The notes under the pieces are model-generated. The model was not told the origin of the DNA and searched no databases. It saw only the letters and a list, made by a program, of their open reading frames with translations. Shown here in pieces: positions 2,448 through 23,825 of a stretch of DNA of 28,185 nt. Source of the DNA: Microcoleus sp. Aus8_D1 (GTDB taxonomy: Bacteria > Cyanobacteriota > Cyanobacteriia > Cyanobacteriales > Microcoleaceae); the NCBI RefSeq assembly GCF_036702645.1, contig NZ_JAUBUO010000016.1:1-28185 (forward strand), given 5' to 3'. Position 1 is the stretch's first letter. Each line of letters starts with the position of its first letter. The position numbers and the translations under genes were made by a program.

Positions 2448-2504
2448 TAGCTCTTTACACTTTTACCCTCTTGCTCTTTACACTTCTTAATTTTTCACTT
2501 GTTG

Positions 2505-2532
2505 GTCGCCCCTGGCGACTCGATTTTTTTTT
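2505..2532 (+). terminator. Rho-independent terminator after the FGS gene
   Basis: GTCGCC-cctg-GGCGAC stem-loop followed by tcgaTTTTTTTTT. Confidence 0.6.
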
Positions 2533-2615
2533 GCCTTTGTCAACCATCTATGCCTAACAGAATTTTGGGATATTTTTTATATTTGCCAGGTCAAATATTG
2601 AGATAATTTCAGAAT

Positions 2616-2808
2616 TTGTAGGGGCAGGTTCACCAACAATTCATGGCACAAACAAATAATATTGTCAACCCGCCCCACCCAACAGACAATCAAAATGTAC
2701 CAGAAATTTATTGGTAAGATGTTAATCTGAATTTATCGTGTGGTGGGGGCGGGTTTTTGTAAATTATTTGTGGGTTTTAGAGATGGTTGGTGAACCCGCC
2801 CCTACAGG
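2616..2808. repeat. REP/BIME-like nested palindromic element, copy 1 (about 193 bp)
   Basis: Outer arms TGTAGGGGCAGGTTCACC and GGTGAACCCGCCCCTACAGG; inner arms AACCCGCCCCACCC and GGTGGGGGCGGGTT. GTAG head. Preceded by a 55-bp spacer that is itself repeated. Confidence 0.85.
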
Positions 2809-2863
2809 ATTATCGGATATTTTTTTGTATTTGCCAGGTCAAATATTGAGATAATTTCAGAAT

Positions 2864-3056
2864 TTGTAGGGGCGGGTTCACCAACAATTCATGGCAAAAA
2901 TGAATGATGTTGTAAACCCGCCCCACCCAACAGACAATCAAAATGTACCAAAAATTTATTGGGTAAGATGTTGATGTGAATTTATCGTGTGGTGGGGGCG
3001 GGTTTGTGAAATTGTTGGTCTGTTTTGTAGATGGTTGGTGAACCCACCCCTACAGG
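2864..3056. repeat. REP/BIME-like nested palindromic element, copy 2 (tandem with copy 1, includes the 55-bp spacer)
   Basis: Near-identical to copy 1; the preceding spacer gtatttgccaggtcaaatattgagataatttcagaattt (inside the 55-bp inter-copy spacer 2809-2863) is duplicated at 2563-2615. Confidence 0.85.
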
Positions 3057-3091
3057 CTGTATAATTATAATGTTGTATTTTTACAAAAATC

Positions 3092-3652
3092 ATGAAATAC
3101 AATCCTCATATCCATCATCGCCGTTCTATTCGTCTACCAGGATACGACTATAGCCAATCAGGTGCATATTTTGTAACAATTTGTATTTGGCAACGTGAAT
3201 GTTTATTAAGTGAGATTCAAGAGGGGAATGTTTTATTAAGCCGCTACGGTGAAGTCGTTAACTTTAATTGGTTTAATCTCACAAGGGTGTATCCTCATAT
3301 TGAATTAGATTCCTTTGTGATTATGCCAAATCATATTCATGGAATTATTCTCATAAAACAACGGAATAAACGTCAGGGTTTATCGGAAATTGTGAGAGGT
3401 TTAAAAACCTTTTCTTCCCGGCGGATCAATCAAATACGTTCTGTTTCACAAATACCTGTATGGCAAAGGGGTTATTATGAACATATTATTCGCAATGAGG
3501 CAACATTCTCGAAAATTCAGGAATATATTATAAATAATCCGTTTAAGTGGGAAATGGATGAAATGCACCCATCACAAAAGTTTTACTATTCTAATAAAAT
3601 TGATATTAAATTAGATAGTGAAAATGTATTGCCGATGAATTTATCATTATAG
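3092..3652 (+). CDS. REP-associated tyrosine transposase (RAYT, TnpA_REP; IS200/IS605-like Y1 HUH enzyme)
   Basis: N-terminus HRRSIRLPGYDYSQSGAYFVTICI, HUH motif NHIHGIIL and catalytic-Tyr motif WQRGYYEHIIRNE. Flanked on both sides by REP-like palindromes. Confidence 0.85.
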   Translation: MKYNPHIHHRRSIRLPGYDYSQSGAYFVTICIWQRECLLSEIQEGNVLLSRYGEVVNFNWFNLTRVYPHIELDSFVIMPNHIHGIILIKQRNKRQGLSEIVRGLKTFSSRRINQIRSVSQIPVWQRGYYEHIIRNEATFSKIQEYIINNPFKWEMDEMHPSQKFYYSNKIDIKLDSENVLPMNLSL

Positions 3653-3662
3653 TAACCCAAAT

Positions 3663-3853
3663 CTGTAGGGGCGGGTTCACCAATAACTCATGGCAAAAAT
3701 GAATGATATTGTAAACCCGCCCCACCCAACGAACAATTAAAATGTACGATAAATTTATTGGTGATATGTTGATGTGAATTTATCGTGGGGTGGGGGCGGG
3801 TTTGTGAGATTGTTGGTCTGTTTTGTAGATGGTTGGTGAACCCGCCCCTACAG
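3663..3853. repeat. REP/BIME-like nested palindromic element, copy 3
   Basis: Same outer and inner arms as copies 1 and 2. Confidence 0.85.
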
Positions 3854-3896
3854 TATTTGGGATGTTTTTTTGTTTAAAATATAGATGGAATTTTAA

Positions 3897-4090
3897 GGTG
3901 GGTGGGGGCGGGTTCACCCACCATCTATCGGGAAAATGAATGATATTGTAAACCCGCCCCCACCCAACGAACAATTAAAATGTACGATTGATTTATTGGT
4001 AAGATGTTGATGTGAATTTATCGTGGGGTGGGGGCGGGTTTGTGAGATTGTTTGTGGGTTTCAGAGATGTCGGCGAACCCGCCCCTACAG
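3897..4090. repeat. REP/BIME-like nested palindromic element, copy 4 (variant left arm GGTGGGTGGGGGCGGGTTCACCC)
   Basis: Shares the inner arms and the right outer arm CGAACCCGCCCCTACAGG. Confidence 0.8.
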
Positions 4091-4148
4091 GATTTTGGGA
4101 TGTTTGTTTGGAAATTCATTGGTTAAATATTTATGTAATTTAATTGTC

Positions 4149-4339
4149 TGTAGGGGCGGGTTCACCAACAATTTATGGCACAAACAAATAATATTGTAAA
4201 CCCGCCCCCACCCAACAGACAATTAAAATGTACGATGAATTTATTGGTAAGATGTTGATGTAAATTTATCGTGTGGTGGGGGCGGGTTTGTGAGATTGTT
4301 TGTGGGTTTCAGAGATGTCGGCGAACCCGCCCCTACAGG
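4149..4339. repeat. REP/BIME-like nested palindromic element, copy 5
   Basis: CTGTAGGGGCGGGTTCACCAAC ... GGCGAACCCGCCCCTACAGG. Confidence 0.85.
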
Positions 4340-4392
4340 ATTTGGGGATGTTTTTTTTATTTTATTAGTTCAATAATATCAATAATCTGCGG

Positions 4393-5786: not shown

Positions 5787-5795
5787 TAAACAATT

Positions 5796-5828
5796 GTAGA
5801 TTTTAGATTTTAGATTTGAGATTTAGGC
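5796..5828. repeat. Heptanucleotide tandem repeat (TAGATTT/GAGATTT)n
   Basis: Direct reading: tagattttagattttagatttgagattt. Confidence 0.8.
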
Positions 5829-7584: not shown

Positions 7585-8104
7585 GAATATCTCAATCTAT
7601 AGGTGAACGAGTAACTATCAATCCTTACTTATCATCATATATAAAAATATTTATTCTGACAAGGTTAAAATTATTCATAACAAAAATTTTTAATTTTTTA
7701 CCTTCATTTTTTTCTCTTTTTTGAGGCAGAGTCTGCCGCTCTTTATCAAAACTTTAAAAAACTACCGCTGTTGACCGCTGTATATTAAAGATTCGGTAAA
7801 ATCCTCAATTTATCGTTACGAATAAAAGCTTTAGCTGTATGGAGAAAACAGCCAGTAAATGTTGCGAAATATAAAGGAAATTTCAAGTATAGGGAAAGTT
7901 AAGTACAATCACTGATTAATGATAGCAAATCTTCGCCAAAGGCAGTTTATACTGACAGTATTGACAAATGCTGCTACTTTGATGAGCCTTCAACCTCACC
8001 TAAAAGCTGGTGACAAGCGCACACAATTCTTAATTTTCCACATAAACATGAGGAAACACCTGTTAAAGTACAAATATTTATTGCTAGATATTCTCAAACA
8101 AAAT

Positions 8105-8347
8105 GGGTTTGTAGTGAGGACTTTAGTCCGCATCAATGAAGGACTCGCATTTCTCACTACAAACCTGGGAACGATCTTCTAAAATAAAATCGGTTCGTAG
8201 TGAGGACTTTAGTCCGCATCAATCAAAGGATTTGCATTCCGAACGATCAAACCTGGGAACGATCTTCTAAAATAAAATAGGTTCGTAGTGAGGACTTTAG
8301 TCCGCATCAATCAAAGGACTAAAGTCCTCACTACAAACCTGGGAAGT
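8105..8347. repeat. 3x tandem array of a ~85-bp unit carrying the palindrome GTAGTGAGGACTTTAGTCC ... GGACTAAAGTCCTCACTAC
   Basis: Three consecutive units; the last unit is a perfect 19-bp-arm hairpin, the middle one is degenerate. Lies downstream of the prlC stop. Confidence 0.8.
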
Positions 8348-10730: not shown

Positions 10731-10837
10731 CCAACTGCCAACTATCAACTGCCAACTGCCAACTGCCAACTATCAACTGCCAACTGCCAACTATCAACTG
10801 CCAACTGCCAACTGTCAACTGTCAACTGTCAACTATC
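10731..10837. repeat. STRR-like heptamer array (CAACTGC/CAACTAT/CAACTGT)n, about 15 units
   Basis: Direct reading. The reverse complement of the same unit recurs at 23791-23825. Confidence 0.85.
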
Positions 10838-11931: not shown

Positions 11932-11966
11932 GATTTGAGATTTGAGATTTGAGATTTGAGATTTAA
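11932..11966. repeat. Heptamer repeat (GATTTGA)4
   Basis: gatttgagatttgagatttgagatttgagattt. Confidence 0.8.
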
Positions 11967-12223: not shown

Positions 12224-12341
12224 AATTAGTCCTGGACGCATGGAATTCATAAACTGGTTTTTTTACAAAAATACTTCGTCGCAGCCAGCAGAATCGGTAA
12301 AAAACCCGGTTTCTTTGGTATTTAGGCGTCCAGGACTAATT
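12224..12341. repeat. 16-bp perfect inverted-repeat pair (AATTAGTCCTGGACGC / GCGTCCAGGACTAATT) separated by about 86 bp
   Basis: Arms at 12224-12239 and 12326-12341. The right arm overlaps the stop codon of the STAND gene. Confidence 0.7.
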
Positions 12342-13730
12342 TGGTGATAACCCTTTGATATATTGCTTCAGTACAGGTGGCAAAGTGTAAAGGCTTTCCT
12401 GTTTTTCGATCGAGCAGCGTCGCGAGAGAGATTGCAATGCGTTTAGCAAATTTGATGATGATATTTGTCCGTTTTGTAGCAATTTGGCGACGTTGACTGG
12501 CTGGTTTTCTGTCGCCAACAATGACATGACTTGTTTTTCGAGTTCGGAAGTGCGATCGTACTGCTCATGTAAAACATCTTTTAAATCTTCGGGTAACAAT
12601 ATGGTATCATCTATTAATAACTCATTCGCGCCGATGCCCAACTCTTGAATCAGAGTCGCCACGCTTTTTAACCATAACGGGTTGCCTTGGTAGCGGTGAA
12701 TGAGTGCTTCGCAGTTATCGATTTCTGCTAATCCTTTATCTCTGAGGATTTCCCGTGCGGCCGCAGTGTCTAAACCAGTGAGTTGTAAAGTCCGAATGGG
12801 AGTATTTTCGCTGGTGAGTTGAGGAACTTCTTTCGGCGGTTCCCAACCGATTAGCAGAAAGCAACTTTGATGGGATAATGTCTCTATTTGTTTGAATAAG
12901 GAGCGATATTCTTCGTATTCGGGTTTATACTTTCCTGCCAATTCGCCGCTACAGAAAAGGTTGTGAACGTCATCTAAGACTATTAAACAGCGATGGTTTT
13001 GTAAATATTTAATCAGCGGTAAGCGTTTCTGGTTGTTTGAGGATGAATCTTGTTTTTCTGACTGGGAAAAAAGCTGTATTAGGTTAGATTTAAATTTATC
13101 GATGGTGGGGAATTCGTCTAGGGTGCACCAAACTGCGTATTCAAACTCGTCTTTGATTTGTTTTACGAGTTGTACTGCTAGGGATGTTTTGCCGATGCCG
13201 AGTCGGCCGGTGAGGGTGATAAGGCGGCAGTTTTGTTGTAGAATCCAGGTTGTGAGGGTTTGGAGTTGAGGAGTGCGATCGAAGAAGTCGCCCAACTCCG
13301 GCATTTCGCTTAAATCTTGATGTAAAGTTTTAGTTTGTTTTGGGTTAGATGTTTCGTCATTATCTGGATGTGACGTTGATATATCTGGGGGGTGTCTTCC
13401 TTCTCCACAGGTATTAAAATTACCACTGATGTGTTGTTCTATGACGTTTTGTGTAAAGCTTGAAACATTAGAGACTTGAAACCTTTGAATTGCCGAGCGA
13501 AAATTCTTTTTATTGACATTTTCCCCCAACTCCTCTGAAAGTAATTGCCATAATTCCGAAGCCGCATTCCTAACACGACTTTCAGAACAGTCAAAGTCTT
13601 TGGCTACGTGCTTGTATGTCTCGTGTTGTACAGTTCCTTTCAGTACCGCCTCTTGTAAATCATCAAGGTGTTGACCCGTTTTCTCGAAGACTATGCGATC
13701 GGCGAAGTTTAACATTTCTTTGAGATTCAT
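12336..13730 (-). CDS. Short STAND (NB-ARC-like) NTPase with the cyanobacterial N-terminal HTH-like domain and no C-terminal repeat array
   Basis: Walker A LTGRLGIGKTSLAVQLV; Walker B-like CLIVLDDVHN. The N-terminus (LQEAVLKG...YKHVAKDF..SESRVRNAASELWQLLSEELGENVNKKNFRSAIQRF) matches the conserved N-domain of cyanobacterial NB-ARC/WD40 proteins. Confidence 0.85.
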   Translation of the reverse strand: MNLKEMLNFADRIVFEKTGQHLDDLQEAVLKGTVQHETYKHVAKDFDCSESRVRNAASELWQLLSEELGENVNKKNFRSAIQRFQVSNVSSFTQNVIEQHISGNFNTCGEGRHPPDISTSHPDNDETSNPKQTKTLHQDLSEMPELGDFFDRTPQLQTLTTWILQQNCRLITLTGRLGIGKTSLAVQLVKQIKDEFEYAVWCTLDEFPTIDKFKSNLIQLFSQSEKQDSSSNNQKRLPLIKYLQNHRCLIVLDDVHNLFCSGELAGKYKPEYEEYRSLFKQIETLSHQSCFLLIGWEPPKEVPQLTSENTPIRTLQLTGLDTAAAREILRDKGLAEIDNCEALIHRYQGNPLWLKSVATLIQELGIGANELLIDDTILLPEDLKDVLHEQYDRTSELEKQVMSLLATENQPVNVAKLLQNGQISSSNLLNALQSLSRRCSIEKQESLYTLPPVLKQYIKGLSPN

Positions 13731-14269: not shown

Positions 14270-15586
14270 ATGAATATAGACTTAAACTGGCTTCCTCATC
14301 AAGCTCCTACAATCGACTTTAAGGCAACTCTGCATCCATCAAAAGAAATTGCATCACGTTGGTTTAACTTTCCACCTTACCATGACGAGCCGAAACTTTG
14401 GCATCTCTCTGCTCAAGTCAAACCCAGTATAGACATTAAAGATGAAAACTTACAGGAGGTCGCTGGAGGTTCGTCACTGGACTTTGATAGAGCTCTCGCA
14501 AAACTGGCGGGGGAAACCGTTGAGCGTTATGCGATCTCTAAGAATGTCAATCTGAACTTGAATGATTTACAATCATGGCAGGAATTGGTACAGCAAAATT
14601 TGTGTGCGCTAGATCCGTTCCAACTTGTGATTGGTGATGAACATCGACATAAATCGCGTCGTAACGATAAAATTTCATGGATTCAAGGATTTGATTTAAA
14701 CTTACAAGTTCCTGCACTTATTCCTGCACAGCTAGTCTTTGTTCCGCATATTTTTAGAGATAATGAAGCTGTTTGGAGATCCGCTGTATCAACAGGTGCG
14801 GCAGCACACTCTACACTTGAGGGAGCTTTATATGCTGGTCTTTGTGAAGTCGTAGAGAGAGACGCTTTTCAAATTGCTTGGCTTAGACAGTTAAGATTAA
14901 CTAGGATAAATATAACTACAGGTGATACTTACTTCTACAATTCTATCAATAAACTAATTGATGCTGGTAAAAGATATCATCTTCACTGTGAGCTATATCA
15001 GCTTCCTTGTTCTATTCCCTTATCTGTTTGCATGGCAGTTATTTGGGATAATACAGGTATTGGACCTCGGTGTTCTCTGGGTGCAAAATGTTCTCAATCA
15101 AGCTTAACAGCCTGTGTCGGAGCACTTGAGGAAGCTTACCAAATGCGTTCTTGGTTGCGATATACACTCAACAAGTCGGGAGCATTTTCAAAGAATAAGC
15201 CACTTGATACATTGCTCGATAGAGCGAGACATTGGTTAACACATGAAGCTTCAGAAGTTCTTAAAAGTTGGACTCAACAATTCAACAGTTCTATTTCTTT
15301 ATCTGAAAGACCCTCTGAACTTTCTCTTGGTGAATTAGTTGAGTCAGTTAAACAAGATGGAGGTACTGCATATTTCGTTGACTTAACAGCGAAATTACCT
15401 GAATGTCTGCATCAATTGGGTTGGCATATTACAAAGGTAATCATTCCAGAGTACCAACCGCTAAACTTAACGGAGTCAATGGAAGACTTCGCCTTGCTAA
15501 GAATTGATAATGCTTCTCAGCGTTTGAATGCTGAAGCTCTTATTCCAGCGGGAGAGAAATTTAGATATCCTCATCCTTTTTTGTGA
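14270..15586 (+). CDS. YcaO-domain protein (standalone, 438 aa)
   Basis: AGETVERYAIS (ExxER ATP-binding motif) and STGAAAHSTLEGALYAGLCEVVERDAF (YcaO signature). Confidence 0.9.
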   Translation: MNIDLNWLPHQAPTIDFKATLHPSKEIASRWFNFPPYHDEPKLWHLSAQVKPSIDIKDENLQEVAGGSSLDFDRALAKLAGETVERYAISKNVNLNLNDLQSWQELVQQNLCALDPFQLVIGDEHRHKSRRNDKISWIQGFDLNLQVPALIPAQLVFVPHIFRDNEAVWRSAVSTGAAAHSTLEGALYAGLCEVVERDAFQIAWLRQLRLTRINITTGDTYFYNSINKLIDAGKRYHLHCELYQLPCSIPLSVCMAVIWDNTGIGPRCSLGAKCSQSSLTACVGALEEAYQMRSWLRYTLNKSGAFSKNKPLDTLLDRARHWLTHEASEVLKSWTQQFNSSISLSERPSELSLGELVESVKQDGGTAYFVDLTAKLPECLHQLGWHITKVIIPEYQPLNLTESMEDFALLRIDNASQRLNAEALIPAGEKFRYPHPFL

Positions 15587-15595
15587 GCAATCAAT

Positions 15596-16372
15596 ATGAA
15601 TATTACAGATCGACAAAGCAAAGACAATGATCCATTGGGGCAGGGAATTCAACTAGCTCAGGCATTTGAAGAAGCTACTTGGATTCACGATGCTTCTTCT
15701 CTCCAAGCAAGTTATATTCCCCATTCCTGGACATCGATAAATAGGAAGGAATATCGCCGTTTACCAAGAGTTGATTTGAGCGGACTACGTTCTCCAAGTC
15801 AAAATAGCGAATTAAGCAAGGTATTTGAACATCGGTCATCCAAGCGACAATTTTTACCGGAACCTATTGCGTTAGAAACGCTGAGTACGATGCTAGCAAC
15901 GGTTGCCAGCACTCGAAATGAAGAACCTCCAAGCCGAGTTTATCCTTCTGCTGGTCTAAGGTGGCCAATTGAGTGGTATCTTGCCGCAATCAATGTAGCT
16001 TCACTGGAAGCTGGAGTTTATCATTATGAATCATTTGATCATCAACTGGAAACACTAAAAATAGGCAATCCTTGGAACGAGCTTGCGGAAGCGCTTTCAA
16101 TGCAAACCATTGATCGTCCATCAGCTTTACTAATCTTAACTTCTGTATTTCATAGAAGTTGGATTAAGTATGGCATTCGTGGAAGTCGATATGCTTATCT
16201 AGAAGCTGGTGCAGCAGCCATGTCCTTAAATATTGTTGCAGTAGAGGCTAACATTGGTGTAGTTTGGCTAGGTGGCTTTGTTGACTCCTCTATTTCAAAG
16301 ATTCTTGATATTAATTGGAAAATGGAGTTAGAAACTCCGGTTCTATGTCTCGCGCTTGGACATCCTATTTAG
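15596..16372 (+). CDS. SagB-type dehydrogenase (nitroreductase-fold, TOMM azoline oxidase-like)
   Basis: SSKRQFL, YPSAGLRWPIEWYL (PSAGGLYP-like) and RYAYLEAGAAAMSLNIVAVEANIGVVWLGGF motifs. Starts 9 bp after ycaO. Confidence 0.85.
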   Translation: MNITDRQSKDNDPLGQGIQLAQAFEEATWIHDASSLQASYIPHSWTSINRKEYRRLPRVDLSGLRSPSQNSELSKVFEHRSSKRQFLPEPIALETLSTMLATVASTRNEEPPSRVYPSAGLRWPIEWYLAAINVASLEAGVYHYESFDHQLETLKIGNPWNELAEALSMQTIDRPSALLILTSVFHRSWIKYGIRGSRYAYLEAGAAAMSLNIVAVEANIGVVWLGGFVDSSISKILDINWKMELETPVLCLALGHPI

Positions 16373-17954: not shown

Positions 17955-18125
17955 TAGATTTTGTAGGGTGCGTCAGGCACAAAATGATGGGTATGTCGTC
18001 TCAGCTTCATTCCTGACGCACCTACAAAACTTCGGGAATAAATCATTAGTGCGTAGCCGCCACATTCCTGACGCACCTACAAAACTTGGTGAATAAATCA
18101 TTAGTCCGCAGTCGCCACATTCTGA
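17955..18125. repeat. Second REP-like palindromic family (GTAGGGTGCGTCAGG / CCTGACGCACCTAC), one forward arm and two reverse arms with a 55-bp tandem duplication
   Basis: Arms at 17962-17977, 18012-18026 and 18067-18081. Confidence 0.8.
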
Positions 18126-22748: not shown

Positions 22749-22815
22749 GTAGGGTGCGTCAGGGGGAAAATTGTTGAGCAAGCAGTCACAATATTCATTC
22801 CTGACGCACCCTACA
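22749..22815. repeat. REP-like hairpin of the second family (GTAGGGTGCGTCAGGG ... CCTGACGCACCCTAC), 16-bp arms and 35-nt loop
   Basis: Same arms as the 17955-18125 element. Confidence 0.8.
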
Positions 22816-23790: not shown

Positions 23791-23825
23791 CAGTTGACAG
23801 TTGACAGTTGACAGTTGACAGTTAA
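23791..23825. repeat. STRR-like heptamer (CAGTTGA)5, the reverse complement of the 10731-10837 unit
   Basis: cagttgacagttgacagttgacagttgacagttaa. Confidence 0.85.

Follow-up and report, generated by a model that had tools for sequence, protein, structure and literature searches.

Organization of the locus

REP-associated tyrosine transposases (RAYTs) and the repetitive extragenic palindromic (REP) sequences that accompany them are a textbook case of a domesticated transposase maintaining a population of non-autonomous repeats, and nearly all mechanistic knowledge of them comes from Escherichia coli and Pseudomonas. Here we describe a RAYT gene bordered by arrays of REPs, an arrangement termed a REPtron, in a stretch of 28,185 nucleotides from contig NZ_JAUBUO010000016.1 of the cyanobacterium Microcoleus sp. 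Aus8_D1 (hereafter the window, i.e. the entire stretch analysed). The gene is an open reading frame (ORF) of 186 codons situated between two arrays of related palindromic elements, two copies upstream and three downstream, in the interval between an FGE-sulfatase gene and the 3' end of xseB (coordinates in Table 1). Five elements of about 190 bp in this disposition had been announced by an original prediction made from the DNA letters alone, and they were recovered where it placed them, with lengths of 187-188 nt and a mean column identity, flanks included, of 88%.

The RAYT protein

Sequence profile analysis of the ORF recovered the NCBIfam RAYT model NF047646 (REP_Tyr_transpos), which it passes narrowly with 84.9 bits against a cut-off of 80, and the Pfam Y1_Tnp domain, with a score of 39.2 against a threshold of 23; the IS200 transposase model NF033573 remained at 24.5 bits, below its cut-off of 55. 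The RAYT profile similarity on which the original prediction had made its assignment depend is hence present. A phmmer search of the PDB with the single RAYT sequence gave no match, and a profile of 23 cyanobacterial RAYT homologues was needed to obtain one, the top match being the TnpAREP of E. coli (4ER8; E = 2.7e-5), followed by the ISDra2 TnpA. In the resulting alignment H81-I-H83, Y145 and N149 stand opposite H59-M-H61, Y115 and N119 of TnpAREP, where H59/H61 constitute the HUH motif, Y115 the catalytic tyrosine and N119 a metal ligand (Messing et al., PMC3479197). H81, H83, Y145 and N149 are unchanged in 23/23 homologues.

The ORF carries the strings PNHIHGII and WQRGYYEHIIRNE, and it had been proposed to possess both the HUH and the tyrosine motif of RAYTs. 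The alignment to TnpAREP bears out the former, but not the choice of WQRGYYEH as the latter: this segment lies opposite WQPRFWEH of TnpAREP and represents a conserved RAYT motif, and the predicted catalytic tyrosine is instead Y145, located within EYIINNP, with N149 four residues further on.

An AlphaFold model of the protein (pLDDT 77), in which the C-terminal ~25 aa are disordered or poorly predicted, likewise found 4ER8 as its best Foldseek match (E = 2.4e-8, root-mean-square deviation (rmsd) 3.3 Å over 146 columns), while the TnpA proteins of the IS200/IS605 elements ISDra2 and IS608 were matched with E ~1e-6 and rmsd of 7-13 Å, so that the predicted fold is nearer to TnpAREP than to IS200/IS605 transposases. 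Pairwise ratios of non-synonymous to synonymous substitution rates (dN/dS) among seven RAYT orthologues range from 0.14 to 0.38, indicating purifying selection; with these ratios and an intact ORF, a reading of the gene as a pseudogene was dropped. By the criteria of profile, alignment and predicted fold the ORF is thus a RAYT of the TnpAREP type.

Anatomy of the repeat elements

The palindromic elements share a nested organization. The outer-arm 17-mer GTAGGGGCGGGTTCACC has 12 matches (with at most 3 mismatches) against 0.00 expected from shuffles, all within 2618-4336, comprising the 10 outer arms and 2 inner arms (3947 and 4195, with 3 mismatches each). The inner-arm 14-mer GGTGGGGGCGGGTT has 18 matches against 0.15 expected, and the 9-nt core GGGCGGGTT recurs in 18 exact copies, all of those in the 28-kb window falling between 2667 and 4332. 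Two further cores, at 2622 and 3041, are mutated, giving four cores per element, in agreement with the earlier description of a palindrome within a palindrome using its core four times. Every element folds into a single long hairpin, as typified by copy 3 (-50.7 kcal/mol, z = -9.1, with a similar value for the other strand).

Analysis with Tandem Repeats Finder revealed a 248-nt period on both sides of the gene, with 90% matches upstream and 84% downstream. The arrays beside the RAYT gene are a local tandem duplication of this 248-nt unit and not five independent insertions. Such a duplication had been proposed for the upstream copies, albeit with a spacer of 55 bp, which is in fact 60 nt, and the GTAG head that had been noted is seen throughout, except at the left end of copy 4, which begins with GTGG. 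The first 26 nt of this copy (3902-3927) are the inverse complement of 3826-3851 in the preceding right arm (inverted repeat I14), so that its left REP is a recombinant.

The repeat was further examined in the RAYT loci of relatives and in 120 genome blocks matching the REP head (see below), the counts that follow being those among the matches listed. The recurrent unit consists of inverted cores GGGCGGGTT/AACCCGCCC, nearly always 45 nt apart from start to start, and thereby forms a stem-loop of ~63 nt that can be written as GTAGGGGCGGGTTC-N(~33)-AAACCCGCCC. It displays a GTAG head at one end, a GC-rich stem of 10-13 bp (GGGGCGGGTT/AACCCGCCCC) and an AT-rich loop of ~35 nt. With a search pattern that itself demanded one GTAG arm, GTAG is found at exactly one end in 205/219 units, at both ends in 8 and at neither in 6; T precedes it in 73% of the units, and the next base out is C or T in 85%. 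Isolated units are the commonest dispersed form (84/211), alongside 24 head-outside dimers with a modal length of 183-198 nt, 16 head-inside dimers and 12 direct pairs.

Thus, the 188-nt element comprises two inverted ~63-nt REPs, heads outward, with a linker of ~62 nt between them, and all five copies in the window are doublets in the sense defined for bacterial interspersed mosaic elements (BIMEs) and REP doublets forming hairpins (REPINs), the loops differing between the two REPs of one dimer. The anatomy and folding of the repeats thereby uphold the original prediction's view of a compound, BIME-like double hairpin flanking a RAYT gene as a REPtron. Its suggestion of a single, unusually large REP was abandoned, as the half-unit is itself the common dispersed form.

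Folding with DNA parameters yielded -39 to -47 kcal/mol for the whole dimer versus -23 to -34 kcal/mol for its REPs and linker taken apart. As one hairpin the dimer gains 10-18 kcal/mol in stability over its REPs folded into two hairpins of their own; the nested long hairpin is hence favoured as the single-stranded form. The interior of isolated units (~35 nt, 38% G+C) pairs no better than interior-shuffled controls (mean z = -0.17), implying that the REP is a GC-rich stem closing a large loop. A candidate extended, conserved stem within the loop was dropped on the same ground, the interior pairing of copies 2 and 3 being local only. With its ~63-nt unit and ~35-nt loop this REP exceeds the classical size limits (20-40 nt, with stems of 5-13 bp and loops of 2-20 nt).

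Other classes of repeat were also considered. A CRISPR array was rejected, since the spacers are themselves repeated inside the 248-nt tandem unit; scanning of 14 of the 27 ORFs of at least 100 aa recovered no Pfam match to a Cas family. Searches of the window against Rfam at gathering thresholds and for tRNAs were empty, indicating that the palindromes are neither a known RNA family nor a tRNA-linked element, and a BLAST search of the whole REPtron against the PLSDB plasmids returned no match.

Table 1. Coordinates of the features that make up the REPtron and its borders (positions in the window; MFE, minimum free energy)
Feature	Position	Strand	Description
Left boundary	2504-2533	+	Terminator-like hairpin (2504-2520) followed by a T-run, after the FGE-sulfatase gene; last stretch common with RAYT-less relatives
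Upstream tandem array	2557-3056		248-nt unit x2.0, each a REP dimer plus 60-nt spacer; repeat families D2 and D5
REP dimer 1	2618-2805		GTAG heads outside; left REP 2618-2680 (core mutated: GGGGCAGG), linker, right REP 2743-2805; MFE of whole element -40.5 kcal/mol
REP dimer 2	2866-3053		Left REP 2866-2927; right REP about 2991-3053 (core mutated: AACCCACCCC), its GTAG head (CCCCTAC on +) ending 38 nt ahead of the RAYT start codon
TATAAT, -10-like box	3060-3065	+	6 nt past the proximal REP; (T)ATAAT or GATAAA at the equivalent place in 7/7 RAYT loci
RAYT gene	3092-3652	+	186 aa; HUH H81/H83, predicted catalytic Y145, N149 (profiles, fold, alignment)
Downstream tandem array	3662-4362		248-nt unit x2.9; repeat family D1
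REP dimer 3	3665-3851		REPs 3665-3726 and 3790-3851; MFE -47 to -51 kcal/mol; GTAG head begins 12 nt past the RAYT stop codon
REP dimer 4	3902-4088		Left REP 3902-3963 (GTGG head, chimeric), right REP 4028-4088
REP dimer 5	4150-4336		Adjoins the 3' end of xseB; likely counterpart is the single same-linker dimer just past xseB in relative L130

Dispersal of the REP among cyanobacteria

A scan for the 17-mer of the REP head, GTAGGGGCGGGTTCRCC, in one genome per species (185,579 species, 596 Gb), in which per-genome counts are lower bounds, recovered at least 120 blocks. Among the matches listed 117/120 are cyanobacterial, coming from Microcoleus, Tychonema, Oscillatoria, Symploca, Kamptonema, Planktothrix, Lyngbya, Calothrix, Nostoc, Chroococcidiopsis and other genera; the remaining 3, from Dehalococcoidia and Actinomycetota, are probably chance matches. 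As simple arithmetic gives an expectation of about 140 random matches over the entire 596-Gb collection, this concentration in a single phylum is far above chance. Many of the genomes listed have several blocks. A single-contig genome of 7.6 Mb, for instance, has blocks at 1.2, 1.8, 1.95, 2.6, 2.95 and 6.64 Mb in addition to its RAYT locus at 6.65-6.67 Mb, with REPs in at least 7 blocks beyond the RAYT locus, six of these at megabase distances, and its exact RAYT protein is recorded once. Among the matches listed a RAYT is encoded in only 2/120 blocks and absent from 118/120.

On a gene map drawn crudely from ORFs, 87% of the 118 REP clusters among these matches are intergenic, as against 18% of random segments, and 19 of them are flanked by convergent gene pairs versus 9 by divergent pairs. 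The original prediction had been made to hinge on enrichment of the element elsewhere and had singled out an intergenic, convergent-biased placement for checking; in relatives, both the dispersal and the placement are observed. Long, ordered arrays of this same REP with 8-15 heads per 8-kb block occur in Symploca, Microcoleus and an Oscillatoriaceae genome (L024 2900-6500, L052 3400-5900 and L074 5450-6860). These blocks lack a RAYT, and REP arrays are therefore not confined to RAYT flanks.

Turnover of repeats at the xseB site

Metagenome contigs encoding an XseA 89-94% identical to that of the window retain the gene order orf6676-orf5914-xseA-xseB and diverge past the xseB stop codon, where all of the following lack a RAYT. 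Four of them (L127, L128, L129 and L169) possess a decayed REP, 245 nt of unrelated DNA and then the FGE-sulfatase 3' end with its terminator; the window is 95% identical to the intergenic region of L127 up to ~2533, at which point the similarity ends. L130 has exactly one head-outside dimer past xseB, with a linker 95% identical over 41 nt to that of copy 5, L134 a single REP, and L131, L132, L133 and L135 no REP at all. A comparison by Megablast of the window with all loci gathered recovered only the RAYT region and short repeats. The site past xseB presents a series of states: empty, remnant, single REP, dimer and full REPtron. Turnover of REPs at one and the same site is thereby evident among close relatives.

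A dimer with a copy-5-type linker is also found away from any RAYT in Microcoleus sp. A006_D1 (L056), and the dimer including its linker is a unit that occurs at unrelated places. With respect to the unit of spread, the same-linker dimer is present at two RAYT-less loci (L130 and L056), yet isolated single REPs are the commonest form among the matches listed. Past xseB in L132 (5388-5600) and L135 (1305-1500) unrelated palindromes (e.g. GACAGGGAATTAATTCCCTGTC; AGTCCTCT..AGAGGACT) or a ~90-nt tandem duplication are seen, and small repeats in general seem to land or turn over at this end of xseB.

These observations bear on the idea that the palindromes serve the host in a structural or regulatory capacity, for instance as stabilizers of transcript ends, terminators or protein-binding sites, and are kept and amplified without any contribution from a RAYT that is inactive or irrelevant. 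The strong intergenic bias, the 2:1 preponderance of convergent over divergent flanks among the matches listed, the very stable hairpins and the conservation of the REP head across many genera would all suit such elements, and local tandem arrays require no transposase. Nevertheless, the RAYT is under purifying selection with all its catalytic residues intact, the same REP flanks it in every lineage examined, including the Calothrix version that is only 55% identical, and the polymorphic presence of REPs together with the recurrence of the same dimer at unrelated loci points to mobility. We hence regard this idea as very improbable. A host role and RAYT-driven spread can coexist, and REPs may have a secondary role of this kind, for example at transcript 3' ends.

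Genomic contexts of the RAYT gene

The organization of dimers on either side of a RAYT recurs in L105, L206/207, L208/209, L006 and, without a downstream REP, in L002. Wherever the RAYT is at least 77% identical, the nearest upstream REP ends in CCCCTAC and is followed 3-10 nt on by a TATAAT-like box and 20-35 nt further by the ATG; except in L002, the GTAG head of the downstream REP (degenerate in L208) starts 4-13 nt past the stop codon. In Calothrix anomala (L041 870-2500), with the 55% identical RAYT, REPs with the same GTAGGGGCGGGTTC head point away from the gene, the reverse of the orientation seen in the close relatives.

A canonical sigma-70 promoter upstream of the RAYT was dropped from consideration, as a consensus scan found no -35/-10 pair and the counts of sites were not above those of shuffles. 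The conserved position of the TATAAT box suggests that it might be a putative promoter element of the RAYT gene. That the proximal REP controls transcription of the gene is speculation prompted only by this adjacent box.

The RAYT orthologues that are 77-87% identical occupy seven different gene neighbourhoods. This raises the alternative that the RAYT together with its flanking dimers is an autonomous mobile cassette, IS200/IS605-like or partly domesticated, which excises and inserts as a unit, preferably into resident REPs. It would account for the xseB-FGE interval of close relatives, which is devoid of a RAYT but keeps a REP or a remnant at the same spot, for the single metagenome sample with both a RAYT-less xseB locus (L134) and a RAYT elsewhere (L207), and for the bracketing of RAYTs at least 77% identical by REPs whose GTAG heads face the gene, wherever a downstream REP is present. 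On the other hand, an autonomous element sits poorly with the single record of the exact protein in the 7.6-Mb genome, the failure to reach the IS200 model cut-off and the 118/120 REP-bearing blocks without a RAYT among the matches listed. Furthermore, the gene is flanked not by defined left and right ends but by symmetric inverted dimers whose number varies, and the L127 site, with its unrelated DNA, is no clean empty site. The relocation could equally stem from recombination of homologous, dispersed REPs with one another or from a general loss of synteny. Such an autonomous cassette is accordingly considered unlikely. A broader formulation, in which a Microcoleaceae-type REPtron that is not fixed or fully domesticated relocates as a cassette into resident REP sites, whether through RAYT action or through recombination between REPs, is also doubtful, though somewhat less so. 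If it were true, the relocating REPtron would stand, as a living intermediate, between IS200/IS605 elements and domesticated RAYTs, with a RAYT that changes position while serving one family of 63-nt, large-loop REPs whose 14-nt head is constant across genera in several groups of cyanobacteria (Oscillatoriales-type, Nostocales-type, Chroococcidiopsis and Gomphosphaeria).

Comparison with known REP and RAYT systems

The closest parallel is the E. coli REPtron, in which tnpAREP/yafM is flanked by BIMEs (Ton-Hoang et al. 2012, PMC3333891; Messing et al. 2012, PMC3479197, PDB 4ER8). In both cases the gene of a Y1 HUH nuclease is bordered by variable numbers of REP pairs, the GTAG head stands at the foot of an imperfect palindrome, and the pairs comprise two inverted, non-identical REPs and a linker, the differing loops of the window's dimers recalling the difference between the y and z REPs of E. 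coli. At the protein level, the HUH, catalytic tyrosine and asparagine positions align, and 4ER8 is the best fold match. However, the REPs of E. coli measure 30-40 nt as opposed to ~63 nt with a ~35-nt loop (dimer ~188 nt) here, protein identity between TnpAREP and the window RAYT is only ~20%, the latter has the poorly predicted tail of ~25 aa at its C-terminus, and the E. coli REPtron is fixed in position, unlike the present gene, which changes position between relatives.

The REPIN-RAYT system of P. fluorescens SBW25 (Bertels & Rainey 2011, PMC3116915) has as its replicative unit an inverted REP doublet that forms one long hairpin. As in the present case, singlets occur frequently, the tandem repeats of ordered clusters take in flanking sequence, and a REPIN cluster lies beside each RAYT. 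The SBW25 REPINs are shorter, at about 71-110 nt versus ~188 nt, and in the present dimers each half is itself a stem-loop with GTAG at one end only; SBW25 has more than 1,400 REPs, whereas here there are apparently fewer, at a rough tens to about 100 clusters per genome.

With regard to repeats, the super-family of GTAG REPs, which includes the cyanobacterial GTAG-12, -15 and -16 (Di Nocera et al. 2013, PMC3733652), displays the same stem-loop with GTAG at one end and a predominance of head-head dimers (GTAG outside) with spacers of 20-100 nt that are often conserved. Its grouped elements are likewise reiterated with flanking DNA, lie mostly in intergenic regions and are associated with transposase genes. 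Its stems are of 5-13 bp and its loops of 2-20 nt, in contrast to the ~35-nt loop seen here. That survey took in Anabaena, Nostoc and Cyanothece, not Oscillatoriales, and a search for the GGGGCGGGTT sequence found no match in its text supplementary files and no relevant mention in the searchable literature.

Among transposases, Group 4 RAYTs are common in Cyanobacteria and are flanked by 16-mers of moderate frequency, about 14 per replicon (Bertels, Gallie & Rainey 2017, PMC5581495). In a comparison made by description only, this moderate frequency fits the modest REP density observed here, but Group 4 RAYTs are reported to be inherited vertically, while the window RAYT changes context between relatives. 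The IS200/IS605 elements (IS608 and ISDra2) have in common with the locus the HUH/Y1 fold, sub-terminal hairpins and chemistry on single-stranded DNA. They differ from it in that the window RAYT lies below the IS200 cut-off and is, in its predicted fold, further from their transposases than from 4ER8, that asymmetric left and right ends are lacking here and that the repeats vastly outnumber the gene. GTAG REPs and groups of RAYTs in cyanobacteria have thus already been described (PMC3733652, PMC5581495), and except for REP size, the locus conforms to the published definitions of the REPtron and RAYT, of GTAG REPs and of BIMEs or REPINs.

Functional implications

The above architectural and contextual observations provide clues regarding the potential function of the locus. 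We consider it likely, with a probability of roughly 0.8, to be a REPtron of filamentous (Oscillatoriales-type) cyanobacteria, i.e. a single-tyrosine HUH nuclease of the RAYT type flanked by its cognate REPs, which it would mobilize in trans. By analogy to the E. coli TnpAREP, the RAYT would bind the foot of the REP stem together with the GTAG head on transiently single-stranded DNA and cut nearby, forming a 5'-phosphotyrosine link via Y145 with the metal held by H81, H83 and N149. Re-joining of strands might then copy or move single REPs as well as dimers, in trans, to further sites that are for the most part intergenic. The catalysis, the cleavage site and the trans-mobilization in this scheme are all inferred from the homology to TnpAREP (PMC3333891, PMC3479197). 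The copies that flank the gene probably arose by local tandem duplication of the 248-nt unit, through unequal exchange or slippage, accompanied by some recombination between REPs, as in the chimeric copy 4.

Several points weigh against this interpretation. In every lineage examined the RAYT is in a differing gene context, unlike the fixed REPtron of E. coli, and the remaining 26 kb of the 28-kb window contains no copy of the arms or the core. Dispersal is instead gauged from relatives, where the figure of 12-20 REP clusters per Mb, or tens to about 100 per genome, is a crude and rough estimate. Given that the REP is larger and its loop devoid of conserved pairing, its recognition may differ from the E. 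coli case. To our knowledge no cyanobacterial RAYT has been studied biochemically.

The locus and its relatives clearly exemplify an already known type of system and leave the current understanding of its mechanism unchanged. They nonetheless provide a cyanobacterial system with clear limits, in which the REP has a large loop and a head that is simple and strongly conserved, and offer useful material for studying the spread of REPs and the inheritance of RAYTs, including RAYT genes that change position. In practical terms, palindromes of 190 nt and arrays of 248-nt units can break assemblies and pass for other types of repeat in annotation.

Other features of the window

Several other repeats were observed in the window. 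Three tandem units of 88 nt, each with GTAGTGAGGACTTTAGTCC, are located at 8087-8345, the last of them containing a perfect 19-nt inverted pair (8285-8303 on the forward and 8316-8334 on the reverse strand). They look like a second, unrelated family of GTAG-headed palindromes, suggesting that the genome holds more than one REP/RAYT system. A third GTAG-headed family, with GTAGGGTGCGTCAGG, a ~33-nt loop and CCTGACGCACC(C)TAC, is present at 17963-18029, 18063-18080 and 22751-22815; its geometry is that of the GGGGCGGG REP (about 11-bp stem, ~33-nt loop) with another stem sequence. A palindrome of C/G runs, GATCCCCCTAAATCCCCCTTAAGAAGGGGG...AAGGGGGGTTAGGGGGATC, at 22598-22672 matches the loci L096 and L098 of other Oscillatoriales genomes and hence probably represents a further small repeat of the dispersed kind. 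Heptanucleotide tandem repeats (GCCCTAT, ATTTTAG, CCAACTG, GATTTGA and CAGTTGA) at 1-53, 5793-5824, 10731-10837, 11932-11964 and 23791-23823 resemble the short tandemly repeated repetitive (STRR) sequences of filamentous cyanobacteria, and GCGATCGC sites, similar to the highly iterated palindrome HIP1, are frequent.

Of the genes, three consecutive ones at 157-2447 encode a Trypco1-domain protein and two proteins with an EAD9 domain, which is C-terminal in a trypsin-like protease and N-terminal in an FGE-sulfatase-domain protein. This pairing of effector-associated domains is reminiscent of a conflict or defence-type system. Identity of the FGE protein to the version of the relatives is only ~65%, although the 3' end of its gene and the terminator are 95% identical in DNA. 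An NB-ARC/STAND NTPase gene lies at 12336-13730 on the reverse strand, and a YcaO cyclodehydratase and a nitroreductase-family gene at 14270-16372 on the forward strand may form a modification pair of the type seen with ribosomally synthesized and post-translationally modified peptides (RiPPs).

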